64,000 nucleotides of DNA from Acidobacteriota bacterium (GTDB lineage Bacteria; Acidobacteriota; UBA6911; RPQK01; JAJDTT01), in contig CBDCJH010000002.1 in the NCBI GenBank assembly GCA_965217775.1, positions 1,216,001 to 1,280,000 on the forward strand, given 5' to 3'. The notes under the pieces are model-generated. The model saw nothing but the letters and a program-made list of their open reading frames with translations. It did no database searches and was not told the DNA's origin. Shown one piece after another: positions 33,251 to 57,024 of the stretch; the stretch's first letter is position 1; the number at the start of each line of letters is the position of its first letter. The position numbers were made by a program, and so were the translations under genes.

Positions 33251-35014
33251 CTATGGCGGCGAGCTGGTGGACGGTCCCGGGAGGTCCATGGCTGAGGCCA
33301 CCGGTGAAAAAATGGGATCATCCTCTCTCCAAGGGCGCCGACAGGGTTGCCGACGCTGGTAAAGCGAGAGATTCTCGGTCAGGAGTCGCGCCAGGTCGAA
33401 GCGTTGGTTCCGCTGCAGATCGGAAATCATGGCGCGTTGCATTTCGGCTGCCTGTTCAAACTGGCCCGTTTCGGCGAACGCCATGGCCAGAGTTTCGACA
33501 TATTCCAACTCAAGGTCGCCCTGGTTCTCAAACAAGCCTTTGAGGAGCTGCAAAGCTCTCATTCCGTTTCGGATCTTGGGGTCGGGCGAAGCGGCCAGCA
33601 ACCGGGCCACGGCGTGCGTCATGTCGGCGTGACCTGGAAATACCTGCAGCCCCTTCTCCAATAGGGACAGCGCCTCCTCATGGCGGCTCAATTGGACCAG
33701 AGACATCGCCCGCATGAAACGTGCCAGGATGCTCATTTGTTGGATTTGCCCGCCCGCATGGCTGCCGTCCGGGGTGCGGCTACCGAACCCGGAATCGAGT
33801 TCCATAACGGCCGTGTAGTGGGGAATGGCGTCGTGGTAACGCCGCAGACGCATGAGCAGATTGGCCAACTGAAAGTGGGCCTCCATAAACCCGGGGTTGG
33901 CCCCAATGGCGCGCTGATAGTGTTTGGCCGCTTCCTCTTCGGACTGCAACCCCATCAACGTGGTTCCCAGGTAGTAATGCAGCATGGGATTGCCGGGCGA
34001 GGCGCGCAACGCTTGAGCGTATTCCCGGACCGCCCCTTTGAGGTCCCCCATTCGGGCCAATGCCGAACCCAGATCGGTCAGCGGAACCGGGTTCTTGGGA
34101 TCCAGAGCCACCGAGGTGCGATATTCCTTGACGGCCTCGGCAAAACGTCCTTTTCCGAAAGCCCGCATTCCGCGGACCCAGTGGTGGCGCCAACCAGTGG
34201 TCAGATCGTCCAGGGCCTCCATCAGGGGATCGGGATAACCTGCCGTGGCGTGGCCACGCCGGAGCCGCTCCAACATGGCGACCTGCTGGAAGTGAGTCTG
34301 GGCTTGATCGAGTTCTCCCTGCTTTCGATAACTCATGGCCAACAGGTAGTGGATGTTGTTGACATCCGGTTGCAGCGCGAGTGCGGCTTCGAAGTAACGG
34401 ATCGCTTCCTTGGTATCGCGCCTTGAGGAAGCGATTTTTCCCATCCCGACCAGGGCCGGAGCACAAGCTTCGTCCAGTGCCAGGGCCCGCTCGAACAAAG
34501 GCCGGGCCCGGTTATGCCGGTTCAGGCTGAGGTGGCCTTCGGCCGCGCCCAGAATGGCCGGCACGTTGTCGGGTTGGTGTTCCAAAGCTCGCTGGTAAGC
34601 GGCGATGGACTTCTCGAGGTCACCCTGATTCTTGTAGATGTGGCCCAGATAGTAGGACCAGCGAAAGTCTGTTGGCGTCAGTGATTCCGCATTGAGATAA
34701 GAGGCCTCGGCCGCGCCCAGAAAATCCTGTACGTGGTAGAGCTTGCCCATCTCACCGTAGGCCTGAGAGAGTTCCTCCTTGCTGACCTCCCCCGCTTTCG
34801 CCATTGACTCCAGCTTTGCCCGGGTGTCTCTTATTCGTTGCTGTGCAGCGGGCTCCAGCCGGCTCAGATCCGGATGGGGAATCGGCCGATATGGATCATT
34901 CGAGTGGGGAACGGACGCGGATTCTCCAGTGACCGCGGTGGGTAGGACGCTCAGCCCGGCAAGAAACAGGGCGCAGACACGCAACAGGTTGAGGAGCGTC
35001 CTCGAATCACTCAT
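33251..35014 (-). CDS. Secreted TPR protein A (paralog of 52925..54652)
   Basis: Signal peptide, PIPHPDL motif, ~11 TPRs, C-terminal module ending PCRRPWREDDPIFSP. Start overlaps the CRTAC1 stop by 8 nt. Confidence 0.85.
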   Translation of the reverse strand: MSDSRTLLNLLRVCALFLAGLSVLPTAVTGESASVPHSNDPYRPIPHPDLSRLEPAAQQRIRDTRAKLESMAKAGEVSKEELSQAYGEMGKLYHVQDFLGAAEASYLNAESLTPTDFRWSYYLGHIYKNQGDLEKSIAAYQRALEHQPDNVPAILGAAEGHLSLNRHNRARPLFERALALDEACAPALVGMGKIASSRRDTKEAIRYFEAALALQPDVNNIHYLLAMSYRKQGELDQAQTHFQQVAMLERLRRGHATAGYPDPLMEALDDLTTGWRHHWVRGMRAFGKGRFAEAVKEYRTSVALDPKNPVPLTDLGSALARMGDLKGAVREYAQALRASPGNPMLHYYLGTTLMGLQSEEEAAKHYQRAIGANPGFMEAHFQLANLLMRLRRYHDAIPHYTAVMELDSGFGSRTPDGSHAGGQIQQMSILARFMRAMSLVQLSRHEEALSLLEKGLQVFPGHADMTHAVARLLAASPDPKIRNGMRALQLLKGLFENQGDLELEYVETLAMAFAETGQFEQAAEMQRAMISDLQRNQRFDLARLLTENLSLYQRRQPCRRPWREDDPIFSPVASAMDLPGPSTSSPP

Positions 35015-36764
35015 TCTCGCTGACGATCCGGCCGCTGCCCGCCTGTAGTGTCGTATAGCGGTCCACGGGGAGATCGATCCACTCTTCCACACCGCTGCCG
35101 GGCCAGGAGACGCGGACGGCTTTTACCCGGTTCCGGCTTCCCAGCCCGACCAACACCCGGGGATCGTTGGCGGAACCGTAGCTGCCGTCGGTTCTCACAC
35201 GCCGTAGCAGGGTGGGACCGTCAGGGAAGACCACTTCCACTCGGGCTCCCAACATGTCTCGTGGGATGTCTCCTCCCAGCAGTCTCAAACCCAACCAGTG
35301 ACGGCGGGTCCCCACGTTGTTGATGAGCAGCCGGGCCGGGCCGTTGTTGTTGACGATCAGCACGTCCACGTCTCCATCGTTGTCGATGTCCCCAAAGGCG
35401 CCGCCGCGGCTCACCTCGGAGAGCTTGAATACGGCTCCAGCCTGTTGGGTAACCTCCTCGAAACGTCCGTTTCCCAGGTTATGGAAGAGCTGGTTGGGCT
35501 GATGCAATGGATAGGGGTCTCGCAGTTTTTCCAGGGCCTCGATGGTCGCAACATCCCCGTGCAAGGCCAGAATGTCCAGCCAGCCGTCGTTATCGTAGTC
35601 CAGGAAGGCGGTCCCGAACCCGGTGTAGGGCATGCTCGCGACTCCCAATTCGCTCTCGAAGGTCTGATCTTCAAACCATCCCTGCCCATTGTTGAGGTAG
35701 AGCGTATTGGTTTCCCGGATCAGATGGGTCATGAAGAGATCTTCGTCGCCGTCGTTGTCCAGGTCTCCGGCGTCGACTCCCATGCTGGCCTCGGTTTTGC
35801 CGTCCCGGTTCAGGGCGCAACCGGCCACCAGTGCTTCTTCCCGGTAACTGCCGTTTCTCTGGTTGATCCACAAGTGATTGGGACGTTGATCGTTGGCGAC
35901 ATAGAAATCGATCCAGCCATCTCCATTGAAGTCGGCGCTCACGACGCCCAGGGCGCCGCCGTGCCTGGTGGCTACGCCGGTTTGGGAGGATACGTCCTGA
36001 AATCTTCCATCACCAAGGTTGCGATAGAACCGGTTGGACTGGGCCGGGTAACTCCGGGGCCCACAGTAGTCTATGGCTCCCGTACTGGAGTAGCACTTCT
36101 TGGGATTGGACAGCCGGTAGTCCACGTAGTTGCCCACGAACAGGTCCAGCCAACCGTCTCGATCGTAATCCAGAAAGGAGGCACTCACGCTCCACGCCGT
36201 ATCGGCGCCGTCACCCATGGGGACCTCGGTGAAGGTGCCGTTGCCGTTGTTCCGATACATTCGGTTCTTGCCGAAGTTGGTGACGTAGAGGTCGACCCAG
36301 CCATCGTTGTCGATGTCCCCCGCCGCCGCCCCCATTCCGTAGCCGATCGAAACGATTCCGCTCTGCGCGGTCACGTCGGTAAAGCGCAAGTTGGGCGTCC
36401 CGTCCGGGTTCACGTTCAAATCGTTTCGAAAGAGCCGGTCTCGGAGTGGAGGCTTTTCCGGCGGCGAAAAGAGGGCGTCGTTCAGTGTCTTGTCCGGTCC
36501 CAGCATCTGGCCTTGCACCAGGTAGACGTCCAGATCGCCGTCGTTGTCGTAGTCGAAGAGGGCGCCTCCGGGGCCCATCATTTCGCAGAAGTAATACTCT
36601 CCGGACATTCCGTTGAAGTGGCGGAAGTCGATTCCGACAGCCTGGGCGACGTCCTGGAACAAATCGGTGCCGGCGTCGCCAGTCTTGGATGGGTAAGCCG
36701 GTGACGTGCAGAACCCCAAGGTCGTGAGACCGATCAGCAGGATCAGCCGATTGAGTTGTGACAT
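35007..36764 (-). CDS. CRTAC1-family / ASPIC-UnbV FG-GAP (VCBS) beta-propeller protein A
   Basis: Repeated D(Y/F/I)D(N/R)DGxxD Ca-binding FG-GAP motifs, SRGGAFGDIDNDGD, C-terminal GARV..GSYGSAND....GLG...V.WP (ASPIC/UnbV). Start placed at MSQLN; the ORF-track extension runs into the MITE. Confidence 0.9.
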   Translation of the reverse strand: MSQLNRLILLIGLTTLGFCTSPAYPSKTGDAGTDLFQDVAQAVGIDFRHFNGMSGEYYFCEMMGPGGALFDYDNDGDLDVYLVQGQMLGPDKTLNDALFSPPEKPPLRDRLFRNDLNVNPDGTPNLRFTDVTAQSGIVSIGYGMGAAAGDIDNDGWVDLYVTNFGKNRMYRNNGNGTFTEVPMGDGADTAWSVSASFLDYDRDGWLDLFVGNYVDYRLSNPKKCYSSTGAIDYCGPRSYPAQSNRFYRNLGDGRFQDVSSQTGVATRHGGALGVVSADFNGDGWIDFYVANDQRPNHLWINQRNGSYREEALVAGCALNRDGKTEASMGVDAGDLDNDGDEDLFMTHLIRETNTLYLNNGQGWFEDQTFESELGVASMPYTGFGTAFLDYDNDGWLDILALHGDVATIEALEKLRDPYPLHQPNQLFHNLGNGRFEEVTQQAGAVFKLSEVSRGGAFGDIDNDGDVDVLIVNNNGPARLLINNVGTRRHWLGLRLLGGDIPRDMLGARVEVVFPDGPTLLRRVRTDGSYGSANDPRVLVGLGSRNRVKAVRVSWPGSGVEEWIDLPVDRYTTLQAGSGRIVSENE

Positions 36765-36860
36765 TGAACCGGGAAAGGATTCGTTGAGAGTCGTGATCTT
36801 AGCAGTCCGCGCACGATGCAGGGACAGTCGAATGCCGTGACGACTTTGGCCACGGGCTGC

Positions 36861-37025
36861 TAGGAGCCTGCGCGGCAGAAATTGATCTACTGCGAAAGCG
36901 GTAGAATCGGTCCATATTTCCTCGATTTCTCGGCGAATAGAACAACTATGCACCTCCAAATCGAGAAAATCTGGCCTCGATTCCCCACTTTCTCGCTACG
37001 ATCATTTCTACCGCGCAGACTCCTA
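36861..37025. mobile_element. 165-bp MITE, copy 1
   Basis: Imperfect terminal inverted repeats TAGGAGCCTGCGCGGCAGAAAT / ATTTCTACCGCGCAGACTCCTA, with CTAG at both ends; near-identical copy at 56490..56654. Confidence 0.85.
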
Positions 37026-38672
37026 GCCACCCTTGACTTGGAAGCTGTCTCCGACCTGAGTCCTGGCATCGTTGAGCTGATCCCAGGCTTGGACTTCCAT
37101 CCGGTAGGTTCCGGGTTCCAGACCCCTCAGGAGAAACCCCTTGACCAGGACCAGTCTCTCCGGCGAGAAGAACTGAATCGACTCCCCGTTGTTGTCGGTG
37201 GTTTCGTGAACGAGGTCGCCGCCGCGGCTGATTCGGTAACGCACCTGCAAATTGGGAGCATTGGAGGATTGATCCAAACCGAAATTGTACAAGTGCAGGT
37301 AAACCGCAAGAAGAGACTTCTCGGAAAAGCTCTTGTCCATGCTGGGCCGTATCTTGACGTCTCCCAAAACGAACATCTGGTTGTCTTCCGGTACCACGTC
37401 CAGCTTGCGGATGAAGTCGGAAAGAATGAGCGAACTGTTGCTTAGTTTCTCTCCTTCCTTCAAGCTCGGCGGAGGAATGATGGCTTGTTTGACGGCGCCG
37501 ATGTTGCTGCTTTCGATGTCCTTCACGACCAGATCGAGTTTATAGCGGGTCTTGTTGTCCAGAATCAGGACTTTCTGGTACATTGATCGACCCTGCAAAC
37601 TCCTCTCCAGCACCTCCGGTGCGTAGGAGATCACCAGTTCATCGTCGAATTCCTGGATCAGTTGATTGTCCAGGCTGGTCACGGCGCCATAGAGGCCGAT
37701 TCGAGCCGAATGCAAATTCCCTTTGCGCTTGAAGGTCATGTCCTTGTTCTGGAGCTGCAGGGTCACGGGAACCAGAATCTTCTGCCGGTTGAGCTTGAAG
37801 TAGTCGCTTCGAGCCTGGAAAGCGAGGTTTGAATAGCCGATGTTGATCTTCACCAACTCCTTCAGATCGTTGTACTTGATCTTTTTCGGGGTCTGTACGT
37901 TGGAAAAAATCTCGTACCGGTAGAAGGGGTTGTTTCTGAAGCTGCCGGTGTTGTAGGCGGGGTTGTGCCGTCCCGGAGAAAAATAAGGGCGATCCTCTTT
38001 TCGGGTGAGACCCACTTGCTCGGACCAGGTCAGGCCCTGTCCCGGCATGTGCAGCAGCGCATCCTTTTCTTCCGGATTGAGAGCCAGGTGGTAGTCCCCC
38101 GTGAAGGAGTTGTCCACGAATTCCAACTCGATGTCGTCTCCAATGCCCTCCAGGTGCCGGTAGCGCCACCGTTCGAATGGATAGACGGTCGTCTGTCCAC
38201 CACCCTGTTCGAATTCCCGGTCGTAGAAACTTCCTGCGGCATAGGACTCTATTTCGGCCGGTTCCCCGTGAATGATGTAGATTCTGCCCCGATCCGAGCG
38301 CCAACCCTCTTTGCCGGAGTGGAATCGCTCATTGGCATAGGCAATCCGCCGATAGTGTTCTTCCTTGAACTCGTTGAGCGCCGTCCGGGGATCGGGATCC
38401 CGCCGGCGCCAGAACTGTTCGATGAAGCGCTCCTTTTCGTCCTCCGTGGTCAGGCTTCCAAAAACCGACTTCTCCTCGTCCGAAATAATGTAGACGGCAT
38501 CCCGTTCCAGCCAGTTCTTGAAATAGTCCTCACTCTCCTCACGCCGGACGTCGGGATTGACTTTTTCCTTTTTCGCCATCGCAGAAATGGACAGCCCCAG
38601 CGACAGAAGCATCAGAAGGGGAAGGAATATATGGTGCACGGCTCTGAACCTTTGTTTCAATGGAGACCTCAT
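37023..38672 (-). CDS. GWxTD domain-containing protein
   Basis: W...D..YII..EE, FIEQFWRRRDP, EHYRRIAYANE.F, GWRSDRGRIYIIHGEP, FERWRYR. Start placed at MRSPL (ORF extends to 38750). Confidence 0.9.
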   Translation of the reverse strand: MRSPLKQRFRAVHHIFLPLLMLLSLGLSISAMAKKEKVNPDVRREESEDYFKNWLERDAVYIISDEEKSVFGSLTTEDEKERFIEQFWRRRDPDPRTALNEFKEEHYRRIAYANERFHSGKEGWRSDRGRIYIIHGEPAEIESYAAGSFYDREFEQGGGQTTVYPFERWRYRHLEGIGDDIELEFVDNSFTGDYHLALNPEEKDALLHMPGQGLTWSEQVGLTRKEDRPYFSPGRHNPAYNTGSFRNNPFYRYEIFSNVQTPKKIKYNDLKELVKINIGYSNLAFQARSDYFKLNRQKILVPVTLQLQNKDMTFKRKGNLHSARIGLYGAVTSLDNQLIQEFDDELVISYAPEVLERSLQGRSMYQKVLILDNKTRYKLDLVVKDIESSNIGAVKQAIIPPPSLKEGEKLSNSSLILSDFIRKLDVVPEDNQMFVLGDVKIRPSMDKSFSEKSLLAVYLHLYNFGLDQSSNAPNLQVRYRISRGGDLVHETTDNNGESIQFFSPERLVLVKGFLLRGLEPGTYRMEVQAWDQLNDARTQVGDSFQVKGG

Positions 38673-38878
38673 CGAGTCCGGCCCGGTGCAACCTAGTTTA
38701 GGCAAGATCCGATTGGGGATCAACGATGCGGATCGACCCACATCATCCACGATGACGTCGCCGCGACTTGACCGGTTTGTCCGTCAGCCCGCAGGATGGG
38801 TTCAGTGGCAGCAATTTTCAGCCAGCTCGAGGCAAACTGTGCTGTCGGAAATCTCTTTGTCTTGAAGGTGTTAAGAAG

Positions 38879-41164
38879 GTGAAGCCGGGTAGGTCGAGTC
38901 GACCCTTACAGCGGAGACTCAAGGCTGCCGTTAATTTCCCCCTGCTAGCGGGGGCCCTATTCAGCTTGAATTGGATCGCGTGTACGCAATCGGACCCGCC
39001 CCCGCCCCCTTCGCCGGCTCTAGATTCCAGCTCTGAAGAAACCGTGGAAACCCAGGTGCCCGAGCCTCCGGGCAGCTTGACCTTTACCCGGGACATCGCG
39101 CCCATCGTCTTCCCGAATTGTTCCCCATGTCATCGCCCGGGCGGAGCGGGTCCGTTCGATCTGCTCAGCTACGACGACGTCAAAACGCGGGGCCGGTTGA
39201 TGGTCGCGGTCACAGAGAGTCGTTTCATGCCTCCCTGGCAGCCCGAACCCGGTTTCGGCGAATTCAGCGGCGAACGCCGGCTCAGCGATGATCAGATCGA
39301 AGTGCTTGAGAAGTGGGTGGCGCAAGGATCGGTCGAAGGAGATCCGGCCGACCTGCCCAGTGTCCCGAAGTGGCCGACGGGATGGCTGCTGGGGCCGCCG
39401 GATCTGATTGTGACCATGCCCCGGCCGTACACGCTGGCCGCCGAGGCCAGCGCGGCGGGGAAGGACGTGTTTCGTACCTTCGTGCTGCCGGTTCCACTGG
39501 AATCCATGCGTTACGTTCGCGCATTGGAGTTGAGACCCGGAAATCCCAAGATCGTGCATCACATCGTGGGAGGCGTCGACCCCACGCCTCGCTCCCGGCA
39601 ACGCGACCGACAAGACGACATGCCCGGATTCGATGGGATGAGATCCACTCAGACGGCTCGTCCTCCCGGGGGCCATATCCTGGTCTGGACGCCCGGAAAG
39701 GTCCCCACGGAGAACCCTGAGGGCTTGGCTTGGGGACTACGGGAGGGGACCGACCTGGTGTTGGAACTGCACATGCAACCGTCTGGTAAACCGGAACGGG
39801 TTCAGCCCAGCGCCGGTCTTTATTTCAGCGACGAAGCACCCACCAAGATCCCCTTCATCCTGATTCTGGGGTCCGTTGCCATCGATATTCCGGCGGGCAG
39901 CAAGAACCACTGGATTGAAGACAGCTACGTACTGCCGGTGGACGTGCAGGTGATGGGCTTGTATCCGCACGCCCATTTCCTGGGCAAGCAGATGGAGGTC
40001 TCCGCACGCTTTCCCGACGGGAGTCGGCGCTGGCTCCTCCATATCAAGGATTGGGACTTCAACTGGCAGGACGATTACGTCTATGCCGAGCCCGTCGCGC
40101 TCCCGCGCGGCACCCAATTGACCATGCGCTACAGCTACGACAACTCGGCCGGCAACGTTCGCAACCCTCACAATCCCCCCCGGCGCGTGGTCTACGGCCC
40201 CAATTCCTTCGATGAGATGGGTGAGGTGTGGATCCAAATGCTGACCCGCGACCAAAGCGACCGGGAAACGCTGCAGAGCGATTATCGCCGCAAACAACTC
40301 GACTTGGGCATCGCCGGCTTCCGGCATTCATTGGACACGAAACCCCAGGACGCCAACACCCATCTGCAGTTGGGTCAGGCGCTCTACGCTCAGGGAAAGA
40401 TCGGGGAGGCCATCGAGCACTATCGCCAGTCGCTGGACTTGCATCCTTCCAGCGCCGAGACGCATGCCTACCTGGCCAATGCCCTGATGCAACAGGACGA
40501 CCCGGAGGGAGCGGTTCGCCACTATTCTCTGGCATTGGAGATCAAACCGGATTTTGTCGAAGCTCGCTTGCATGCTGCCAACTCGCTGATGGGGCTCGGA
40601 AAACACGCACCAGCGGAAGGGCACTATGCGCGAGTCGTCGCATTGAACGGCGGACACGCCTTCGCCCGCTTCATGCAGGCCATGGCACTGATCCGGCTGG
40701 GCCGCTACCAGTCCGCCCGGTCCCGGTTGGAAGAGAGCCGCCGGGCGCTGCCTGAAGATATCGATATCACTCACGCCCTGGCCCGGCTCTTGGCAGCGGC
40801 TCCCGACAGCAGCGTCCGCAACGGACCGCTGGCGCTGCAGCTCTTGCAGAAGGTGTTCCAAGCCCAGAAGGAAATCTCCTTCGAACACGTGGAAACGCTG
40901 GCGATGGCCTTTGCGGAAACGGGGCAATTCCAGCGAGCGGTCCAGATGCAGCAGGCCATGATCGAGGACGTCAGCCGAGGTGGGCGTAGGGATCTTGCCG
41001 AATTGCTACGAGAGAACCTGGGGCGGTATCGCCGGGGACAGCCCTGCCGGAGCCCCTGGAGGGCGGACGATCCGGTCTTTTCACCGCGTCCAGGCGAATG
41101 GACTCCGCTGGAGTCTCCCGCCGGTGCGAGCCGGGGGCAGATCCCGACCCCAGCGGGTCGTTAG
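38879..41164 (+). CDS. Predicted lipoprotein: c-type cytochrome + copper type II (PHM/DBH-like) monooxygenase + TPR, copy 1
   Basis: Lipobox-like WIAC; CSPCH (39119-39133) and MPPW; VHH (His at 39557-39562), ELHM, HAH (39968-39976), DEM (Met at 40217); WDFNWQ; TPRs and the shared C-terminal module. GTG start chosen by similarity to the paralog start at 45032. Confidence 0.82.
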   Translation: MKPGRSSRPLQRRLKAAVNFPLLAGALFSLNWIACTQSDPPPPPSPALDSSSEETVETQVPEPPGSLTFTRDIAPIVFPNCSPCHRPGGAGPFDLLSYDDVKTRGRLMVAVTESRFMPPWQPEPGFGEFSGERRLSDDQIEVLEKWVAQGSVEGDPADLPSVPKWPTGWLLGPPDLIVTMPRPYTLAAEASAAGKDVFRTFVLPVPLESMRYVRALELRPGNPKIVHHIVGGVDPTPRSRQRDRQDDMPGFDGMRSTQTARPPGGHILVWTPGKVPTENPEGLAWGLREGTDLVLELHMQPSGKPERVQPSAGLYFSDEAPTKIPFILILGSVAIDIPAGSKNHWIEDSYVLPVDVQVMGLYPHAHFLGKQMEVSARFPDGSRRWLLHIKDWDFNWQDDYVYAEPVALPRGTQLTMRYSYDNSAGNVRNPHNPPRRVVYGPNSFDEMGEVWIQMLTRDQSDRETLQSDYRRKQLDLGIAGFRHSLDTKPQDANTHLQLGQALYAQGKIGEAIEHYRQSLDLHPSSAETHAYLANALMQQDDPEGAVRHYSLALEIKPDFVEARLHAANSLMGLGKHAPAEGHYARVVALNGGHAFARFMQAMALIRLGRYQSARSRLEESRRALPEDIDITHALARLLAAAPDSSVRNGPLALQLLQKVFQAQKEISFEHVETLAMAFAETGQFQRAVQMQQAMIEDVSRGGRRDLAELLRENLGRYRRGQPCRSPWRADDPVFSPRPGEWTPLESPAGASRGQIPTPAGR

Positions 41165-41292: not shown

Positions 41293-41294
41293 CT

Positions 41295-47120: not shown

Positions 47121-48935
47121 ATGTGCTCTCAGCGAGGGAGTCCCTGGGGCATCCTGGTCATTTGGGCTCTACTGAACGTCTCTCTGGCCCAGGGTCCACA
47201 GCAGGCCGTCGGTCCGGGGCAGCATGAAGGAGATTCGGCAACCAGTGATATCTTCCTGGATGCGACGCGGGCAGCAGGGATCGATTTCGTCCACTTCAAC
47301 GGCATGTCGGGGGAACGCTATCTCTGCGAAATGATGGGCCCCGGTGGAGCCATGTTCGATTATGACAACGACGGCGATCTCGACCTCTATCTGATTCAGG
47401 GTCAAATGCTCGGACCGGGGAAAACTCTTGCCGATGCGGTCTTCCCCCCGCCCAACTCCGAATTGCTGATCGACAGGCTCTACCGAAACGACCTGCAGAC
47501 GCACAAATCGGGAAGACGCCGTCTGCACTTTACGGACGTGACGGAGGAAGTGGGGATCGAGGCACGGGGCTACGGGATGGGCGTGGCAACGGGAGACTTC
47601 GACAACGATGGCTGGACCGACCTCTACCTGACCAATTTCGGGCCCAACCAGTTGTTTCGAAACAATGGAGATGGAACCTTTACCGATGTGACCGGGGCAA
47701 CCGGCACGGATGACTCTCGCTGGAGTGTCAGCGCGGCTTTCCTGGACTACGACCGGGATGGCTGGCTGGACCTTTACGTGGGCAACTACGTCGACTTCAG
47801 CTTCTCCAATCACAAGCGCTGCTTCTCTTTCGCTGATGCCGGCAGCGGGAGTGCCCTCGAGTACTGTGATCCCAGCCAATACGAACCGTTGCCTGAGAGC
47901 CTGTTCCGCAACCGGGGCGATGGAACCTTCGAAGATGTGTCCCACAAGGCAAGAATTGCCCGGGAATCAAATGGGGCATTGGGCGTGAGTACGGCCGACT
48001 TCAACGGAGATGGCTGGATCGACATCTATGTCGCCAATGACAAGAGGCCAAATCACCTTTGGATCAATCAGACGGATGGCAGTTTTCGGAACCAGGCTCT
48101 GCTGGCCGGTTGCGCAGTAAGTGGGGAGGGTTTTTCCGAGTCCAGCATGGGAGTGGACGCCGGTGACTTTGACAATGACGGAGACGAAGACCTCTTCATG
48201 ACACACATGTCGCTGAACGAGAAGAACACCCTCTATGTCAACCAGGGAGAGGGATCGTTCGAGGATGCCTCCTACCTGAGCGGGCTCGCTCTTCCCAGCA
48301 TTTCTTTCACCGGGTTCGGAACCGCATTTTTCGATTACGACAACGATGGCAGGCTGGACATTATGGCTGCCAATGGACACGTCAAAAGGGTTGAGGGGCT
48401 GGCACGGGCCAAAGACCCTTATCCATTGCACCAAACCAATCAACTGTTCAGGAATATGGGGAAGGGACAGTTTCAAGAAGTGACCCAAGCCGCCGGGGCC
48501 GTGTTCGAGCTGTCCGAAGTGAGTCGCGGAGCGGCATTTGGCGATGTCGACAACGATGGAGACACGGATGTTCTGGTTCTCAACAACAGCGGGCAAGCGC
48601 GGCTGCTGACCAATCAGGTCGGAAGCGGCAACCATTGGATGGGACTGAGGTTGGTCGGCCGGCCTTCGGCACGAGACCTGCTGGGCACCAGAGTGGCTGT
48701 CCTGCTATCCCAGGGCCGAACCTTGTGGCGCCGGGTCCGCTCGGACGGCAGCTATGCCTCCGCCAATGATCCCAGAGTGCTGGTCGGACTGGGTGGAGAC
48801 ACTCAGGTCGAGGCGGTGCGAGCTTACTGGCCCGACGGTCGAGCAGAAGAATGGAAAAAAGTTCCGATCGATACCTACTCGAGACTGCGTCAAGGCAGCG
48901 GGACCCGACTGTCTTTGCCACCGGAGCATCGATAG
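47121..48935 (+). CDS. CRTAC1-family / ASPIC-UnbV beta-propeller protein B (close paralog of A)
   Basis: Signal peptide; HFNGMSGE.Y.CEMMGPGGA.FDYDNDGD shared with A; FG-GAP repeats; GSYASANDPRVLVGLG. Confidence 0.9.
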   Translation: MCSQRGSPWGILVIWALLNVSLAQGPQQAVGPGQHEGDSATSDIFLDATRAAGIDFVHFNGMSGERYLCEMMGPGGAMFDYDNDGDLDLYLIQGQMLGPGKTLADAVFPPPNSELLIDRLYRNDLQTHKSGRRRLHFTDVTEEVGIEARGYGMGVATGDFDNDGWTDLYLTNFGPNQLFRNNGDGTFTDVTGATGTDDSRWSVSAAFLDYDRDGWLDLYVGNYVDFSFSNHKRCFSFADAGSGSALEYCDPSQYEPLPESLFRNRGDGTFEDVSHKARIARESNGALGVSTADFNGDGWIDIYVANDKRPNHLWINQTDGSFRNQALLAGCAVSGEGFSESSMGVDAGDFDNDGDEDLFMTHMSLNEKNTLYVNQGEGSFEDASYLSGLALPSISFTGFGTAFFDYDNDGRLDIMAANGHVKRVEGLARAKDPYPLHQTNQLFRNMGKGQFQEVTQAAGAVFELSEVSRGAAFGDVDNDGDTDVLVLNNSGQARLLTNQVGSGNHWMGLRLVGRPSARDLLGTRVAVLLSQGRTLWRRVRSDGSYASANDPRVLVGLGGDTQVEAVRAYWPDGRAEEWKKVPIDTYSRLRQGSGTRLSLPPEHR

Positions 48936-49005: not shown

Positions 49006-50163
49006 TCACTGGGGCTTTCCCTGCAGGAAGTCTCCAGCATCGCGCTGCTTCTTTTCTCGGGCTTGCGTGTCCAGTTTCTGAAACAGCTCCAGTTCTCGTT
49101 GAGCTTCTTCCATCCGTCCGAGCTTCTTATAGATTTGGGCCAATTGATAGTGGGATTGCGGTTGGCTCGGATCCAAGGCGATCGCTCTCTGCAACGCCGC
49201 CACACCATCCTGTAGCCGTCCTTTGGCCGCGTAGGCAGCGGACAATGCGACGTAAGCATCAGGAATCTGATCATCTACGCGCGATACCGCCTCCAAATGC
49301 CGAATCGCCTGGTCGAACTCCTGGCGGTAGTTCTTGATGATTCCCAACTCGAGATTGACGATCGGATGGTGGGGATCGATCTTCCACTCCTTCTCCAGCG
49401 CCGGCTCCGCCTTGTCGTACTGTCCCAAACCAAAATAGAGATCGCCCAGGGCGAAGTTGACTCCGGGCGCGTTCGGATTCAGAGCGACCGCTTTCTCGTA
49501 TTCTTCGATGGCCTGGTTCAGACGTCCCTGGGTGGCATAAGCCTCCGCCAGAAGTTGGTGGGTACGAAAGGAATCCGGATCGATCTCTTCGATACGGGAG
49601 AAAGTCTCCTGGAATTTGTTGTACGAGGTCCTGGTCCGGTTCAAGTAAGCCTGGGCCAATGTCTGCAGTGCTTCCAGTTCCTGAGGATGTTTCTCGATGA
49701 CCGCTTCCAGGCGCTCGATACTCTTGCCGATCTGTTGCAGAGCCAAAAAACAGACCCCCAGATAGACTTGGGCCTTTACGTTTTCGGGATTCTGGGAAAT
49801 CGCTTGTTGGAATGACTCGATAGCCTTCTGATACTCATACAGGCTGTAGTAAGCGAGCCCCAGAAAGAAATGGGCATCGGGCAGCTTAGGGTCGAGTGTC
49901 AGGGCCTTCTCGATCGACTCGACGGCTTCCCCAAACCTCCCCTGAAACTGATAGATCAATCCCAATTTGGCATGAAGGGGCGGGAAATTGGGTTGGATCT
50001 CCAGCGCTGACCGATAGGCCTGTTCAGCGGTACTCCAGTCGCCACTTTCCTCGGCGCGAGCGGCACTCTGGAGGTATTCCTGAACCTCTGGAAGCATTTG
50101 GCCTGCCGTCGAGGTCGCCTGCCCCCCCAGCAATGTCAGAAGTAACAAACTATGAAGCACCAT
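49006..50163 (-). CDS. Secreted TPR protein B
   Basis: Signal peptide MVLHSLLLLTLLGG; ~9 TPRs; C-terminal HYQLAQIYKKLGR.EEA..EL..F..L. ORF extends to 50271. Confidence 0.83.
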   Translation of the reverse strand: MVLHSLLLLTLLGGQATSTAGQMLPEVQEYLQSAARAEESGDWSTAEQAYRSALEIQPNFPPLHAKLGLIYQFQGRFGEAVESIEKALTLDPKLPDAHFFLGLAYYSLYEYQKAIESFQQAISQNPENVKAQVYLGVCFLALQQIGKSIERLEAVIEKHPQELEALQTLAQAYLNRTRTSYNKFQETFSRIEEIDPDSFRTHQLLAEAYATQGRLNQAIEEYEKAVALNPNAPGVNFALGDLYFGLGQYDKAEPALEKEWKIDPHHPIVNLELGIIKNYRQEFDQAIRHLEAVSRVDDQIPDAYVALSAAYAAKGRLQDGVAALQRAIALDPSQPQSHYQLAQIYKKLGRMEEAQRELELFQKLDTQAREKKQRDAGDFLQGKPQ

Positions 50164-50286
50164 TATTAGGGAGACTCCCCAAGTATGAAGTGAAATGTCT
50201 GGCTGCTGATATCCTTTTTTCGATGCTGAATTAACAGTGAATCTCGAGGCCTCCGTACCCGGTGAGTTCAACTCGGCTTCTACAGG

Positions 50287-52758
50287 CTAGGGCTCCGTTA
50301 CATTCAATTCGGAACCGGCTGGTATGGGTCCAGGAAGTACTTGTTGCTTACCTGAGGGCCAAAGCACTTCAACTTTATCGACGTGTCTGGCCTCGCCGAG
50401 CCCAAAGTAAAGCGGATAGAGACTTTGCGAGAGGTAACCGGATTGGCCGTCCTGAACCTTGGTGTAGTTGGCTTTCCCAACCCGGACCGTGACCCGGGCG
50501 CCGAGCCCGTCGCGGTTCGACCGGGTACCGGTCAGATTGACTTTAAGGAAACGAATCTGCTTGCGATCGGCCAGATCACTGACGAGGACCAAGGGCTCGG
50601 AATTGAAATCGTTGGTCACAATGTCAAGGTCCCCGTCGTTATCCAGGTCGAAAATCACTGACGAACGAGAGCCCACGGCTCCCCAGGCCACGACACGGGT
50701 GACTCCGGCTCCCCGGGCCCTGACCTTCTTGACCAGTTCGTGGTCCTTGTCGACGCGGAGCGCGTCCAGTTCAAACCAGGGGGTGAGGGTTCGGCCGCCG
50801 CGCCTGGGTTCCACGCCCAAAATGAATTCGCTGTCGACGAATCCCTGCCCGCGGTCGTTGAGCAGCAGACTGTTGATGCCATAGCGATAGCCGTAGTTCA
50901 TGCAGGAAGTGATGAATGCATCTTCGAATCCGTCGGCGTTCAGGTCCCCCACACTCAATCCCCAGGGCCAATAATTCTCGGCATTGATTTGATCGGATAC
51001 TTCTTTGAAAGTGCCGTCTCCCCGGTTGCGAAAGAAGGCGTTTCCCCAGACATGATTTCCGTCAGTGGCCAACATCTGTTTCTCGGCGATCTCCTCGGGG
51101 AAGGGGATCTTCTCTTTCTCGCTGAACGGACCCAGATGCTTCCACATGTCCGTGTGCATGTCGGTCAGATAGAGGTCCAGTTGCCCGTCGTTGTCGAAGT
51201 CGAAGACCTTGATCCCCATGGTTCCCCACGGCGTCGCGGGAAACCGCTGGCGGCTCTTCTTCACGAATCTTCGACCTTCAATATTCTCGTAATACTGGTC
51301 ATGGCCCTGCATGTTGGCCAGATACAGATCGGGCCAGCCATCATTGTTGGCATCAAGCGGGCTGGCGTCTCCCGACCAACTCATATCCTTCAAGCCCACC
51401 TGGCCGGTGACGTCGACGAATCGGTTTCCGCCCTGGTTCTGAAAGAGGATGCTGGTCTCCGAGAGTGCAGCATCCAGGTGACGGTTGAAGGCGTCCGGGG
51501 TGGAACGATAGTAGGTATATGGGGAGCGATCCGCGCCCGTGAAGGAGTCATGGACGACCGTCCTGATTTCCTCCGTTGTATAGATGCCGACGTTCACCAG
51601 GAAAAGGTCCAGCCGGCCGTCCCGGTTGTAGTCGAAGAAAACCGCCGCCGAGGAGTGGCCCGTGTACCCGAGACCCGACTCGGCGCTGATGTCTTTGAAG
51701 ACTCCGCTCCCGTCGTTCTCGAACAACACATTACCGCCGCGAACGGTGGTGACGTAAAGGTCTGCGTCCCCGTCGTTGTCGATATCGGCAAAAGAAGCGG
51801 CCACGCCGATCCGTTCCCTGACACCGACCCCCGCCCGCTCCGTGATGTTCTCGAACTTGCCGCCGCCCCGGTTCTTCCAGAGTTCGTTGCTGCCGGCCTG
51901 GCTCACGAAGTAGATGTCGTGCCGCCCGTCGCCATCGACGTCGGCAATGGCGAGACCGTTTCCATGGTCGTAGTGGGCGAAGATAAAGGACCTTCCCGCA
52001 TCGTCGACGATCCGGTTGCGAAAAGCGATGCCCGACTCCCGGACCCGGTCCTCAAACGAAAAATCATGGAAGACTTGTATGTTGTCGGCTCCGTCAAGTT
52101 GGGCCTGCCGGCGTTCTTCCAGCCACGGGAAACCCTGCCACAGGAGACGTTCCTGCAGCGTCGTCAGGGCATCCCTCTTCAGGGCCTCTCTCTGGCCGGA
52201 TACCGTGCCGTCGTAGAACCCCCGGACATGCCCTTGCGGATCGACCAGCATCCATTTTCCGCCGTGCTCGTGCGCCGGCCCGGCGAACCCCGCGTGCACT
52301 TGACTTAGTACGTCTCGTGAGCCGGTGAGGAAGCTCCACTGCTCCCCGTCCACTCCGGCCGCGGTTGCGTAACTCCGAAGGACTTTGGGCGAGTCGTGCT
52401 CCGGATCGGCTGTGAGAGTCACTAGGCGAATATCAGCCCAGCCGGGACGTCTTCTGAGCTCTTTTTGGAGCTTTTCCAGCATGGCGGTTTGTGACGCCGC
52501 CCGTGGATCGTGGGTACGAACAACGTCGGCGATCCAAGCTTTTCCCAGCAGTTCGTGGGTCCCGAAAGGCCGGGAGAGGTGGTCGGTCAAGGAGAACTCG
52601 GGCAAACGGTGCAGTACGGGAGGCATATGGTCTTGCGGGCTGGTTCTTTCGTTTGTCGCCTGCCGCAGGTTCGGCGCAGACGAAGGAGCCGCCGCCAGGC
52701 CGAGCCAAGCCATCACCAATACGCTGGCTGCCGCAATTGCCGAATTTGGTGGGAACAT
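50287..52758 (-). CDS. SCO/SenC-like domain fused to CRTAC1/ASPIC-UnbV beta-propeller (protein C)
   Basis: LPEFSLTDH..RPF....L.GKAWIAD, T.DPEHDSP.VL..YA, WSFLTG, H....MLVDPQG.VRG.Y (SCO fold); then FG-GAP repeats and SGYLSQS..PLYFGLG...WPSG (ASPIC/UnbV). Confidence 0.85.
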   Translation of the reverse strand: MFPPNSAIAAASVLVMAWLGLAAAPSSAPNLRQATNERTSPQDHMPPVLHRLPEFSLTDHLSRPFGTHELLGKAWIADVVRTHDPRAASQTAMLEKLQKELRRRPGWADIRLVTLTADPEHDSPKVLRSYATAAGVDGEQWSFLTGSRDVLSQVHAGFAGPAHEHGGKWMLVDPQGHVRGFYDGTVSGQREALKRDALTTLQERLLWQGFPWLEERRQAQLDGADNIQVFHDFSFEDRVRESGIAFRNRIVDDAGRSFIFAHYDHGNGLAIADVDGDGRHDIYFVSQAGSNELWKNRGGGKFENITERAGVGVRERIGVAASFADIDNDGDADLYVTTVRGGNVLFENDGSGVFKDISAESGLGYTGHSSAAVFFDYNRDGRLDLFLVNVGIYTTEEIRTVVHDSFTGADRSPYTYYRSTPDAFNRHLDAALSETSILFQNQGGNRFVDVTGQVGLKDMSWSGDASPLDANNDGWPDLYLANMQGHDQYYENIEGRRFVKKSRQRFPATPWGTMGIKVFDFDNDGQLDLYLTDMHTDMWKHLGPFSEKEKIPFPEEIAEKQMLATDGNHVWGNAFFRNRGDGTFKEVSDQINAENYWPWGLSVGDLNADGFEDAFITSCMNYGYRYGINSLLLNDRGQGFVDSEFILGVEPRRGGRTLTPWFELDALRVDKDHELVKKVRARGAGVTRVVAWGAVGSRSSVIFDLDNDGDLDIVTNDFNSEPLVLVSDLADRKQIRFLKVNLTGTRSNRDGLGARVTVRVGKANYTKVQDGQSGYLSQSLYPLYFGLGEARHVDKVEVLWPSGKQQVLPGPIPAGSELNVTEP

Positions 52759-52924: not shown

Positions 52925-54652
52925 ATGTTCCGGTTCGTGGCAAACGGCAGAATAGCCTTCCCGGTACCCGTCGGACTGTCCCTGGCTCTGGTTTTCCTGG
53001 GCGTGGCCGGTGTCCATTCCGTAGCGGAATCTGCCGGGCTTCAGGACCCTGACGCCAGAGAGCTGACCCCCATTCCTCATCCCGACCTCAATGCCGTGGA
53101 GCGGCTGATTCGGGAGCAACTCCAAGCAGAGCGATCCAGGTTGACGGCCAAGGTCTCCGCCGCCGAAGTTCCCGATTCGGCTCGAGCTGACGCTTTTGGA
53201 GGGCTGGGAAGGCTTTACCATGCCTACGATTTCACCGAAGCCGCCCGGGCCTGCTACCGGAATGCGCTCGTCCTGAAGCCCAAGGATTTTCGCTGGGCCT
53301 ATCTGCTGGGCCGCCTGTTGGAAAGCCAAGGGGACCTGAAGCAAGCCGTCGAGCACTACCGGCGAGCCGCCGCCATCGAGCCGGAAGATCTTCCGACACT
53401 GCTGCATCTGGCCCAGGCGCAACTGAACCTGAATCGTCCGGAGTTGGCCGAACCGCTTTTCAAGGAGGCCATCTCCCGAGACCCGTATCCATCGTCAGCT
53501 TCCGCGTTGGTGGGGTTGGGCAATATTTCCCTCTCGCGGAACGATCCTGAGGAGGCAATCGAATACTTCGAAACCGCCGTCTCGCTGCAACCGGAGGCCA
53601 ACAGCATCCACTATCCGTTGGCCATGTCCTACCGGCAGATCGGGGACCTGGAGAAGGCGCGGGAACATCTCAAGCAGCGCGGGACCAAGACCCCGGAATA
53701 CCCGGATCCGCTGATGGACGAGCTCCGAAAAGTCAGGACGGGCAAGCAGTTTTTTTGGAGTCAGGGCACCGTCGCGCTGAGCGAAGGAAGGTTTGCGGAC
53801 GCCGCCGAGGCCTTCCGTCAGATGGTGGCCGCCGATCCGGAGGAGCCGATCGCGCACATGGACCTGGGGACGGCGCTGCTGCAACTCGGAGATGTCGGCG
53901 GAGCCCTGGCCAGGTACCAGGAATCGCTCCGGCTCTCGCCGGGCAATCCCCGGCTTCACTACAACCTGGGGCTGGTTTACACCCTGCAGAAGGCCTATCC
54001 GAAGGCGCTCGAGCATTATCAGAATGCCGTCGAGCTGGATCCCGGATTCGAGAACGCCCATTTCAACGCGGCGAATCTATTGATGAGACTGGGGAACATG
54101 GCGCGGGCCGGGCGGCACTACGGTCGAGTGAATGAACTGAATCCCAGCCATGCCTTTGCCCGTTTCATGCAGGCCATGACGTTGGTGAAGCTGGGCCGCT
54201 ACCGGGAGGCGCGAACGCTTCTGGAATCGAGCCACCAGGCTCTGCCCGATGATGTCGATATCACCCACGCCCTGGCCCGTCTGCTGGCGGCTTCGCCCCA
54301 AAGCACCGCCGGCGATGGACGCCAGGCTTTGAAGCTGCTGGAGGGTGTCTTCAAGTCCCAGAACGAAGTGGCTTTCGAGCACTTTGAGACGCTGGCGATG
54401 GCTCTGGCAATGTCCGGACAAATCCATAGGGCCTTGCAGGTGCAGCAGGGAATGATGGACGAAGTCAGGCAAGCCGGACGTGCGGATCTGGCCGCGTTGC
54501 TCGAAGAGAATTTGGCGCGGTATCGAAGCGGTCAACCCTGCCGCACCCCCTGGAGGGACGACGATCCGGTGTTCTCTCCTGTCCCAGGGGATTTGGCGCC
54601 GCTCAAGTCAATCGGGGAAGGGTCCAACCCAAACTCGGTTCCTGGGAGTTGA
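52925..54652 (+). CDS. Secreted TPR protein C (paralog of TPR protein A)
   Basis: Signal/TM segment, PIPHPDL, DFRWAYLLG, IHYPLAMSYR, YPDPLM, C-terminal PCRTPWRDDDPVFSP. ORF extends to 52838. Confidence 0.85.
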   Translation: MFRFVANGRIAFPVPVGLSLALVFLGVAGVHSVAESAGLQDPDARELTPIPHPDLNAVERLIREQLQAERSRLTAKVSAAEVPDSARADAFGGLGRLYHAYDFTEAARACYRNALVLKPKDFRWAYLLGRLLESQGDLKQAVEHYRRAAAIEPEDLPTLLHLAQAQLNLNRPELAEPLFKEAISRDPYPSSASALVGLGNISLSRNDPEEAIEYFETAVSLQPEANSIHYPLAMSYRQIGDLEKAREHLKQRGTKTPEYPDPLMDELRKVRTGKQFFWSQGTVALSEGRFADAAEAFRQMVAADPEEPIAHMDLGTALLQLGDVGGALARYQESLRLSPGNPRLHYNLGLVYTLQKAYPKALEHYQNAVELDPGFENAHFNAANLLMRLGNMARAGRHYGRVNELNPSHAFARFMQAMTLVKLGRYREARTLLESSHQALPDDVDITHALARLLAASPQSTAGDGRQALKLLEGVFKSQNEVAFEHFETLAMALAMSGQIHRALQVQQGMMDEVRQAGRADLAALLEENLARYRSGQPCRTPWRDDDPVFSPVPGDLAPLKSIGEGSNPNSVPGS

Positions 54653-54709: not shown

Positions 54710-56314
54710 CTACGATCCCTCCGGCGCCAGGGCATCAAATTGAACCAGCGTGAGGGAGAACGGCGGGCACGACAAAATCCACTCCCGGTCCTGTTCTCCG
54801 ACTTTCGCGGAGGCCGGCTCGATGCGATCGGGAACCTTGAAATCATTGATTTCCAGTGGCCCTGAAGCAGTCAGCACGGTGGCTGCGGTCTTCAACCGCC
54901 CGGCCCCCTCGAGGCGAAATCGGACGGACTGCTCGCGGCTCAGGTGGGGATTGATGATCGAGACGGTGAATTGACTCGAATCGCTCTTTTTGGAAGCTAC
55001 GATGTCCAGTTCCGGGAGCGAGCGGGTCCTGCCCTCGTCCTCGAACTGAAATTCGCCGATGGCTGCTTCCAACCCCATGACATCGGCGTTCATATGGTGT
55101 TTGAGCAGGTCGAAGACATGGTAGGTGGGAGTCCGAACCAGCTTGGGCCCCTTGGTCTTCAACACGTTGTGAATCACGTTGACGGATAGGGCCAAATGAG
55201 CCAAATGCAGGCGATTCGCCCGGCGCATGAACCCGTGCAGCATGCGCGCGGCCATGAGTGCGTCACGCATGGTGTCCGGCTGGACGAAGTCCTTGCCGGA
55301 CATGGAGATGGGAAAAGATTCAACGGGATCGATCTCCTTGTGCCAGGCGCCCCACTCGTCGAGCATGATGCCGATGTGTTTGCGCCCCCCGATCCAGCGG
55401 TCGATGGACCTGGCCGCCTCATCGATCACGTTCTTGCACTTCTCAACGTCGGCCAGCAGGGCGTAGGTGTCCGCGGCTTGGCTTTCGGCCGCCGCCGCCG
55501 GCTTCAAGTAGCACTGGAGCGAAATCAGGTCGAACAACTCGAGGCGGTCGCTCAGCGCTTTGAGCAGCCGGTCGACCCAGTCGCTGTGCGGCTCGCCATT
55601 GATGATGATTTTGGCGTCCCGGCCATACTGGCGCATGTAGAATCCGTAGCGGCGCACCTGGATCGCGTACAGTTCCGGCGTCCACTGGTAGCTGGTCTCA
55701 TTGCCGATGGTCCAGTACTTGACCCCGTAAGGCTCCGGGTGGCCGTTTTTCCGCCGCAGCTCGGCATACCGGGTGTCTGTAGTGCCATTGACGTATTCCA
55801 TCCAGGCGACGATCTCCCTGGGGTCGCCCATTCCAATATTGGTTTGGATGACCGGCTCGGCTCCGATGGCGGCGCACCACTGCAGGAATTCGTCGGTTCC
55901 AAAAAAATTGGGTTCAACCTCCTGCCAGAAGCTCAGGCTGCGGGGACGTTGCGATCGAGGTCCGATCCCGTCTTTCCAGTGGTAGGTGTCGGCGGCGGTC
56001 CCCCCCGGCCAGCGAAATGCGGGAGCCCGGAGTTGACGATAGGCTTCGATGGTGTCGAGCCGCATACCGCCGTCATTGGGGATGCTGGAATCCTCGCCAA
56101 CCCAGACGCCGTCGTAGATGGTCGCGCCGAGCAGCTCCACCATGTGACCGAAGATCCCGGGAGCGATCGTTCCCCGGCGCTCTTCCGGATGGATCTTCAC
56201 TGTCGTCTCGACCCCTATTTTAGGGCCGCCTGGAAGGTTGGACTCCTGCGCTTGGAGGGTGGCGAACGGTCCAACGGCCGTCGCGAGAATCAGAGGAAGA
56301 ACCGATCTTTCCAT
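54710..56314 (-). CDS. Alpha-L-arabinofuranosidase-like glycoside hydrolase, family GH51, secreted
   Basis: FGHMVE..G..IYDGVWVG, RWPGG..AD.YHW.DGIGP, FGTDEF, YW.IGNE (acid/base), LDEWG.WH (nucleophile), TPTYHVF. Confidence 0.9.
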   Translation of the reverse strand: MERSVLPLILATAVGPFATLQAQESNLPGGPKIGVETTVKIHPEERRGTIAPGIFGHMVELLGATIYDGVWVGEDSSIPNDGGMRLDTIEAYRQLRAPAFRWPGGTAADTYHWKDGIGPRSQRPRSLSFWQEVEPNFFGTDEFLQWCAAIGAEPVIQTNIGMGDPREIVAWMEYVNGTTDTRYAELRRKNGHPEPYGVKYWTIGNETSYQWTPELYAIQVRRYGFYMRQYGRDAKIIINGEPHSDWVDRLLKALSDRLELFDLISLQCYLKPAAAAESQAADTYALLADVEKCKNVIDEAARSIDRWIGGRKHIGIMLDEWGAWHKEIDPVESFPISMSGKDFVQPDTMRDALMAARMLHGFMRRANRLHLAHLALSVNVIHNVLKTKGPKLVRTPTYHVFDLLKHHMNADVMGLEAAIGEFQFEDEGRTRSLPELDIVASKKSDSSQFTVSIINPHLSREQSVRFRLEGAGRLKTAATVLTASGPLEINDFKVPDRIEPASAKVGEQDREWILSCPPFSLTLVQFDALAPEGS

Positions 56315-57011: not shown

Positions 57012-57024
57012 GTCGACACCACCG

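Follow-up and report, generated by a model that had tools for sequence, protein, structure and literature searches.

What kind of system, if any, is encoded by the eleven consecutive genes that occupy positions 33251-56314 of a 64,000-nucleotide stretch of DNA from an Acidobacteriota bacterium (contig CBDCJH010000002.1, positions 1,216,001 to 1,280,000; the whole stretch is called the window below)? A preliminary description of this block had proposed a single oxidative machine of the periplasm or outer membrane, in which tetratricopeptide repeat (TPR) proteins dock CRTAC1-like β-propellers to copper monooxygenases. The reading that we favour on balance is that the block forms a genuine island of proteins exported to the envelope, made up of loosely linked modules that recur separately, and not one co-inherited machine. 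Its novelty lies in a heme-fed monooxygenase family of the type of peptidylglycine α-hydroxylating monooxygenase (PHM) and in a module that joins a propeller to a TPR protein, not in an 11-gene machine.

The genes, numbered g1 to g11 by position, were delimited and assigned domains from a listing of open reading frames (ORFs) and from family scans, with start codons picked from the N-terminal sequences. The series of eleven exported-type genes that had been reported is borne out by the ORFs and by the Pfam and NCBIfam domains, and a basic and then hydrophobic leader follows a plausible start codon in all eleven N-termini. These leaders, as well as the lipobox-like cysteines mentioned below, were called by visual reading of the N-termini. 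The density of the recurring families in the block is not the background of the window: the remaining ∼41 kb contain no propeller, no heme-copper gene and a single TPR gene (12608-14041) among 37 ORFs scanned.

The two heme-copper genes, g4 (38879..41164, + strand) and g6 (45032..47062, + strand), share one architecture, in which a lipoprotein-like N-terminus is followed by a c-type heme domain, a monooxygenase domain of the PHM fold and a TPR tail. A lipobox-like cysteine is seen in both (W-I-A-C in g4 and W-M-G-C in g6), and the TPR matches in Pfam cover residues ∼510-600 of g4. An AlphaFold2 model of residues 60-470 of g6 has a pLDDT of 94.1 and a pTM of 0.89. Searched with Foldseek, this model finds PHM best as PDB entry 3mll (E = 6.9e-15, TM-score of 0.68 on the target, ∼290 aligned columns, 18% identity) and dopamine β-hydroxylase (DBH) as entry 4zel (E = 7.2e-13); every PDB match listed up to rank 31 is either PHM or DBH. 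The two β-sandwich domains superpose on those of PHM, and the fold of g4 and g6 is that expected for a type II copper monooxygenase. The N-terminal ∼100 residues are helical and bear the heme motif.

The residues that such an enzyme would need are strictly conserved. Cys22, Cys25 and His26 (the CxxCH motif), Met58, His164, His165, His235, His301, His303 and Met384 are invariant in 48 of 48 aligned relatives, and the same holds when the domain is aligned by itself, in 30 of 30 sequences drawn from seven named phyla. The CxxCH motif is present in 262 of 267 relatives and, together with the conserved distal ligand Met58, gives the family the features of a c-type cytochrome. The other invariant residues reproduce the ligand pattern of the CuH (HH + H) and CuM (HxH + M) sites, which g4 also carries, with HH...H/HxH...M spacings of 70, 66 and 81 residues in g6; their equivalence to the PHM ligands is drawn from fold and spacing. 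We take the latter to be His107/His108, His172, His242/His244 and Met314, a spacing close to that of g6.

Fold and ligand pattern therefore carry the copper monooxygenase call made in the preliminary description, while the sequence models stay below their cut-offs. Cu2_monoox_C scores 12.9 bits for g4 and 14.3 bits for g6 against a cut-off of 23, the N-terminal Cu2_monooxygen model of Pfam is not reported for either protein even at E ≤ 10, and Cytochrome_CBB3 reaches 15.4 and 18.8 bits, respectively, against a cut-off of 27. No PHM was returned from sequence searches of the PDB with the catalytic domain, either as a single sequence or as a domain-only profile, and a first catalytic profile that included the TPR tails matched only TPR proteins. 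We assign g4 and g6, from the modelled fold only, as predicted copper monooxygenases of the PHM/DBH fold with a c-type heme motif. PHM and DBH are textbook animal enzymes that use ascorbate, and DBH in addition carries a DOMON domain. The proteins described here differ from both: they are bacterial, lipoprotein-like and only ∼18% identical, and they have an N-terminal c-type heme, a C-terminal TPR tail and no PAL partner.

These heme-copper monooxygenases form a very large family without a name. When all representatives of clusters at 50% identity are searched, 14,963 clusters match at E ≤ 1e-3 and 3,139 at 1e-30, and a word-indexed search gave at least 6,538 matches at E ≤ 1e-3 among 8,000 candidates. 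The TPR tail is present in 251 of 265 relatives fetched. In the source records the members are labelled just as 'tetratricopeptide repeat protein' or 'mono/diheme cytochrome c family protein', and 15-29% of the members of the Atlas neighbours of the catalytic domain carry Cu2_monoox_C. A description of the family was not found in the open-access literature, subscription journals being outside this coverage. In a bacterial PHM-type branch of at least ∼15,000 clusters, with its own heme entry for electrons and its own TPR tail, one protein chain is enough to test how electrons are delivered in this class of enzyme, and the branch points to oxidative chemistry as yet unknown in the envelopes of soil and sediment phyla that are abundant. 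Some members (P0030, P0034, P0035, P0007, P0124 and P0095) depart from the common layout. Forms of ∼1,080 amino acids with EF-hand domains occur, variants of ∼1,070 amino acids are matched in two stretches, as if the catalytic domain were doubled, and one 531-amino-acid variant is annotated with sigma-70 region 4 domains.

From the chemistry of the PHM family and from this architecture a mode of action can be proposed. The fused cytochrome would replace ascorbate and pass single electrons to the CuH site, O2 would be activated at CuM and a C-H bond of the substrate would be hydroxylated, while the TPR tail may hold a protein, a peptide or a partner. By this analogy g4 and g6 are most likely self-sufficient periplasmic hydroxylases. 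We regard them as module A of the block, two lineage-specific paralogs of a self-contained periplasmic oxidase family. They are 68% identical in the catalytic (N-terminal) domain and form a clade with one close relative only.

Propellers make up the second recurring part. FG-GAP_3 and UnbV_ASPIC are above the Pfam cut-offs in g2 (35007..36764, - strand; 163.5 and 51 bits), g7 (47121..48935, + strand; 181.2 and 52.7 bits) and g9 (50287..52758, - strand; 156.9 and 62.5 bits). By sequence, g7 matches murine CRTAC1 (cartilage acidic protein 1; PDB entry 9etn) with an E value of 2.5e-16. Its model (pLDDT 91.9) matches 9etn_A over the whole length, with an E value of 2.4e-30 and TM-scores of 0.71 on the query and 0.75 on the target. 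Membership of the CRTAC1/ASPIC-UnbV family thus holds for g2, g7 and g9, with a propeller and an UnbV_ASPIC tail in each and the CRTAC1 fold in the model of g7. The bacterial proteins differ from CRTAC1 in being exported and paired with, or fused to, a TPR protein of ∼575 amino acids, in the addition of an SCO-like domain in g9, and in sequence (∼18% identity). Further fold matches of g7 are integrin α propellers, fungal GlcNAc lectins, aldos-2-ulose dehydratase and the PL11 rhamnogalacturonan lyase YesW.

Three genes encode separate exported TPR proteins, assigned with the Pfam TPR families. Two are of the propeller-partner type, g1 (33251..35014, - strand, ∼587 amino acids) and g10 (52925..54652, + strand, ∼575 amino acids, divergent from g9), and the third, g8 (49006..50163, - strand, ∼385 amino acids), is a shorter, different TPR protein that looks exported from its N-terminus. 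It had been noted beforehand that each propeller gene is co-directional with and adjacent to a TPR-bearing gene, and this stands. Gene g1 lies downstream of g2 and overlaps it by 8 nt if it starts at the ATG at 35014, from which its N-terminus reads as signal-like; the gap between g6 and g7 is 58 nt; and that between g9 and g8 is 123 nt, or 15 nt with an upstream TTG start.

The pairing of propeller and TPR protein is real and not due to chance, because the two also exist as fusions whose TPR halves align with g1 and g10. Among 120 listed long propeller homologs (1,058-3,020 amino acids), 34 are propeller-TPR fusions, with the propeller first in 29 of the 34 and the reverse order in three; the gene orders g2-g1 and g9-g8 are likewise propeller then TPR. 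The TPR halves align over ∼380-550 amino acids with g1 and over ∼400-510 with g10, which is the best TPR match from the window for 30 of the 34 fusions (mostly 30-40% identity over ∼400-510 amino acids), g1 being the best for two. These alignments make g1 and g10 the split form of a common two-domain protein. In related loci, 13 of 19 propeller genes are fused to a TPR gene or adjacent to and co-directional with one. With these fusions, bacterial CRTAC1/UnbV proteins gain a first firmly established functional partner; neither a function for bacterial CRTAC1 proteins nor a CRTAC1-TPR pair was found described in the open-access literature, subscription journals again being outside the coverage.

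Module B of the block then comprises g2 with g1, g9 with g8 or g10, and g7, that is, FG-GAP propellers of the calcium type that would work with a dedicated TPR protein of ∼575 amino acids. It is most likely a ligand-binding or adaptor unit and not a lyase, since the fold neighbours of the modelled propeller are integrins and fungal lectins. Gene g7 lacks a separate TPR partner gene and sits behind the TPR-tailed g6. Co-folding of the g7 propeller (580 amino acids) with the g6 TPR tail (212 amino acids) gave scores of 0.00 and 0.00 against a mark of 0.32 in a run without control pairs, and speaks neither for nor against contact between them.

An analogy with eukaryotic peptidylglycine α-amidating monooxygenase (PAM), in which PHM is joined to the propeller lyase PAL, had been drawn for the block, and the two do resemble each other in that an enzyme of the PHM fold is encoded beside a β-propeller protein. 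The likeness is superficial. The propeller here is of the FG-GAP type, CRTAC1- and integrin-like, PAL, whose propeller is an NHL-type one with zinc, is absent from the 50 fold matches listed for the g7 model, and the adjacency of monooxygenase and propeller is not conserved. A parallel to the setting of the propellers comes from non-anammox bacteria, in which a CRTAC1-family gene lies between genes for homologs of hydrazine synthase subunits (PMC12758564). There too a CRTAC1-like FG-GAP gene stands among genes for periplasmic heme c redox enzymes; the enzymes, however, are hydrazine synthase α and βγ homologs, and TPR proteins and copper monooxygenases are unmentioned in the passage of that article concerned with these clusters.

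The SCO part of the block is a domain of g9 and not a separate gene. The SCO1-SenC model scores 36.9 bits (cut-off 22.8) at residues 54-159, and the domain aligns with the Sco structures 4hde (E = 6e-13) and 1xzo. Both cysteines of the CxxxC motif are replaced. They are also missing in 26 of 27 fused SCO-propeller homologs, the most distant of which alone keeps the motif, and the column of the ligand histidine varies; the fusion is a narrow clade, with 27 clusters found. Loss of the cysteines excludes copper loading in the canonical SCO manner for this domain. The N-terminal domain of g9 is a degenerate thioredoxin fold without copper-binding cysteines, and it should not be annotated as a copper chaperone.

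How far the parts of the block travel together was assessed in other genomes. Genomes were scanned with 14 aligned sequences of the catalytic domain; this gave 599 confirmed loci, the best 80 of which were kept (37 from Acidobacteriota, 13 from Gemmatimonadota, 11 from Verrucomicrobiota, nine from Planctomycetota and others), and the window proteins were searched against all of their ORFs. Proximity was tested as gene density near to versus far from the anchor gene within these loci. The full 11-gene block recurs in only one locus, the 92% identical L001. Ten of the 80 loci have a propeller no more than 10 kb from the monooxygenase, with occurrences in Acidobacteriota and Verrucomicrobiota and at least eight changes on the tree, and in two loci the distance to the anchor gene is 500 nt or less; propeller density does not rise toward the monooxygenase (p = 0.30). 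A separate TPR gene is found in 20 loci, GWxTD in two, and SCO and GH51 in one each, both solely in the close relative. Thirty-eight loci extend for at least 5 kb to each side; of these, five have a propeller, 14 a barrel of the type of g5, 11 a TPR gene and 21 neither propeller nor barrel. No fusion of monooxygenase and propeller occurs among 416 proteins fetched.

The barrel encoded by g5 (41295..44747, - strand) constitutes module C. It is an Oar-like outer-membrane barrel of the TonB-dependent receptor type, having a CarboxypepD_reg N-terminal domain (69.8 bits) and a large outer-membrane barrel (OMP_b-brl_4, 557.6 bits; TonB_dep_Rec_b-barrel, 26.9 bits); no Plug model of Pfam is reported at E ≤ 1e-3. 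The sequence AAGGAGG precedes its ATG, after which a signal peptide follows. Oar-like barrels are present in 19 of the 80 loci, in 15 of them within 2.5 kb of the monooxygenase, where such genes are ∼5 times denser than farther out (p = 2.8e-4). A barrel within 2.5 kb is seen in 14 of the 37 Acidobacteriota loci and in none from the other named phyla, the rest being unlabelled records, and the tree requires at least ten changes. The barrels beside the monooxygenase are 24-31% identical to g5, no closer than distant ones, and the median identity is 26% between adjacent barrels versus 28% between adjacent and distal ones. A specific receptor subfamily that partners the monooxygenase was considered and rejected, the adjacent barrels being unrelated paralogs. 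In Acidobacteriota, genes of module C thus often adjoin module A, as unrelated paralogs, and the barrel may carry a substrate or a product across the outer membrane.

The neighbour met most often beside the monooxygenase family is none of these parts but a thioredoxin-fold protein of ∼190 amino acids, which occurs in 26 of the 80 loci (for example L017:9258-9833, L061:9387-9953 and L080:5624-6307), from at least seven phyla, and in 21 of the 61 with both sides visible. Its gene usually lies directly upstream of that of the monooxygenase with overlapping stop and start codons, and in one locus it is fused to the C-terminus of the monooxygenase (L078:7994-11074). The protein has one invariant cysteine at the active-site position with a conserved motif after it and a near-invariant C-terminal Gly-Cys, and its profile matches the uncharacterised thioredoxin-like structure 2ywi (2.9e-21) as well as 3u5r and 2cvb, and ResA more weakly. 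It is probably a maturation or redox helper of the monooxygenase. The partner was not found in the window among six-frame ORFs of at least 60 amino acids at E ≤ 10. That the SCO-like domain of g9 might represent it was rejected on an hhalign probability of 0.08%. The resemblance of the accessories to SCO1/SenC and TlpA/ResA is twofold, in that the g9 domain scores above the SCO1-SenC cut-off and that thioredoxin-fold accessories recur with the monooxygenase family; it ends where the cysteines of g9 are replaced and where the partner proves to be another thioredoxin-fold family.

A few loci combine most of the parts. In L080, one strand carries a barrel, a TPR gene, a thioredoxin-like gene, three or four monooxygenase genes, a TPR gene, a propeller and a TPR gene, and L061 has a propeller followed by a thioredoxin-fold gene, a monooxygenase, a receptor and a TPR gene, and then a propeller. 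In L073 (Verrucomicrobiota) and L075 (unlabelled), a propeller, an UnbV-redoxin-TPR fusion and a monooxygenase are encoded in this order in overlapping frames. ORFs with an UnbV_ASPIC tail, a classical WCxPC redoxin and TPRs stand beside a propeller ORF and the monooxygenase at L073:2262-4337, L075:7770-9845 and L025:5212-6402. In both L073 and L075 the propeller ORF and the UnbV-redoxin-TPR ORF are only 25 nt apart; a single gene, split or misassembled, may underlie both. Elsewhere the neighbours of the monooxygenase include sulfatases (five loci), PQQ dehydrogenases (five), GH3 enzymes (four) and one GMC oxidoreductase.

These combined loci, found in a few independent Acidobacteriota with all types of part together and in L073 and L075 with overlapping frames, argue for a single integrated machine, in which TPRs would dock propellers to monooxygenases, a thioredoxin- or SCO-type part would service the metals and the barrel would handle a hydroxylated or amidated peptide or glycan. 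The position of g7, 58 nt behind the TPR-tailed g6 and without a TPR partner of its own, and the frequency of the thioredoxin-fold partner would also suit it. Yet no propeller is within reach in 70 of the 80 loci, neither propeller nor receptor is present in 21 of the 38 well covered ones, propeller density does not change with distance, the receptors beside the monooxygenase resemble g5 as little as distant ones do, cysteines are missing from the SCO-like domain, the propeller does not resemble PAL, a fusion of monooxygenase and propeller is absent from the 416 proteins, and the block itself falls into at least six transcription units on both strands. We consider such a machine distinctly unlikely; what survives of it are the monooxygenase fold, the propeller-TPR pairs, the thioredoxin-fold accessory and the few combined loci, without a conserved set of 11 genes. 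The opposite view, that families expanded in Acidobacteriota have clustered by chance and that local tandem or inverted duplication mimics a system, has the same low probability in our estimate. Local duplication does account for part of the repetition in the block, g4/g6 and g2/g7 (63% identical) being local paralog pairs, synteny is confined to the 92% identical relative, the receptors beside the monooxygenase are unrelated paralogs, and a published table of the paralog families in Solibacter usitatus lists ASPIC/UnbV as well as TonB-dependent receptor genes (PMC3174227). Chance would not easily explain, however, why propellers and TPR proteins are fused, which shows that this pairing at least is functional, nor the ∼5-fold density of receptor genes within 2.5 kb of the monooxygenase, the redoxin-bearing propeller-TPR fusions that directly adjoin it in another phylum, or the lack of any propeller or heme-copper gene in the rest of the window.

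Two further readings were weighed. The block might be an island for polymer utilisation, akin to a polysaccharide utilisation locus, in which the barrel imports, the GH51 enzyme g11 trims arabinofuranose, the propellers bind glycans and the heme-copper enzymes oxidise a recalcitrant polymer, much as a cytochrome domain feeds lytic polysaccharide monooxygenase. A GH51 gene and a TonB-type barrel do lie inside the block, all 11 products look exported, the propeller resembles GlcNAc-binding fungal lectins and the PL11 enzyme YesW in fold, and sulfatases, PQQ dehydrogenases, GH3 and GMC oxidoreductase genes are found beside the monooxygenase elsewhere. We nevertheless hold this to be unlikely. GH51 accompanies the family in one of 80 loci, the close relative only, no SusD-like gene or other carbohydrate-active domain is present in the 11 genes, the TPR tails suggest protein rather than glycan ligands, the characterised enzymes of the PHM fold act on peptides and amines, and ASPIC/FG-GAP proteins were not found in polysaccharide utilisation loci in the open-access literature. 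The other reading is a widespread system for envelope hydroxylation, in which the heme-fed PHM-type monooxygenase and its thioredoxin-fold helper, in some lineages with propeller-TPR adaptors and a barrel, would modify peptides, proteins or glycans. This too is unlikely in our view; if true, it would give bacterial CRTAC1/UnbV proteins their first function and define a new class of copper oxygenase.

Several points weigh against the loosely linked modules that we favour. The sample of 80 loci is biased toward relatives of g6 and many loci are short, 38 having at least 5 kb on both sides. Propeller density near the anchors, ∼0.2 per 10 kb, seems high for a genome average and would favour tighter linkage, and the operon-like layout of loci such as L080 and L073 is compatible with a single system in some lineages. 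The equivalence of the histidines and methionine with the PHM ligands comes from fold and spacing and not from residue superposition, and the profiles miss PHM. Cooperation between the modules is possible in some lineages, and the 11-gene block should not be annotated as one system.

By strand and spacing, the genes of the block fall into the units g3-g2-g1, g4, g5, g6-g7, g9-g8, g10 and g11. Promoter and terminator scans of 32000-51999 did not rise above shuffled sequence (4 versus 5.4 and 18 versus 19.1), so the operon limits are drawn from spacing and strand only.

The two remaining genes, g3 and g11, are neighbours common only to the close relative. Gene g3 (37023..38672, - strand) encodes an exported GWxTD-domain protein (GWxTD_dom, 58.2 bits; TIGR04514, 111.6 bits against a cut-off of 28), for which sequence searches gave no solved relative. 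Gene g11 (54710..56314, - strand) encodes an exported GH51-like α-L-arabinofuranosidase (Alpha-L-AF_C, 101 bits against a cut-off of 27); against the ArfA equivalog of NCBIfam it scores 222.3 bits, below the cut-off of 625, and the GH51 assignment is at the family level only. No SusD/RagB model of Pfam or NCBIfam matches any of the 11 proteins, and the block in this respect differs from a locus of the SusC/SusD type.

Between g3 and g2 sits a 167-nt repeat (36859..37025) that resembles a miniature inverted-repeat transposable element, with terminal inverted repeats of ∼27 nt. A second copy, 97% identical and in direct orientation, lies upstream of g11 (56488-56654). The repeat also occurs at the syntenic place in L001 (1643-1921), where two partial copies of 62 nt are found elsewhere in the locus. 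Rfam has no match for it, nor for any other part of the window, at the gathering threshold.

On both sides the block is flanked by ordinary cytoplasmic or membrane genes, with a leaderless O-methyltransferase before g1 and a ZIP transporter after g11. The former, a class 3 enzyme of the caffeoyl-CoA/catechol type (32492-33142, - strand), is encoded on the strand of g1, 108 nt downstream of it; it has no signal sequence and was not counted as part of the block. Its place beside DBH-like enzymes is curious and probably a coincidence. Farther away and unrelated to the block, an ORF of 2,201 amino acids with SWM_repeat, fn3 and Big_5 domains (19688-26293, + strand) is probably a giant surface protein. 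The ∼1.4 kb between g11 and the ZIP transporter gene (56654-57682) hold no Pfam-assigned gene, and small ORFs with hydrophobic segments are present there at 56652-57011, 57025-57327 and 57192-57599, all on the - strand.

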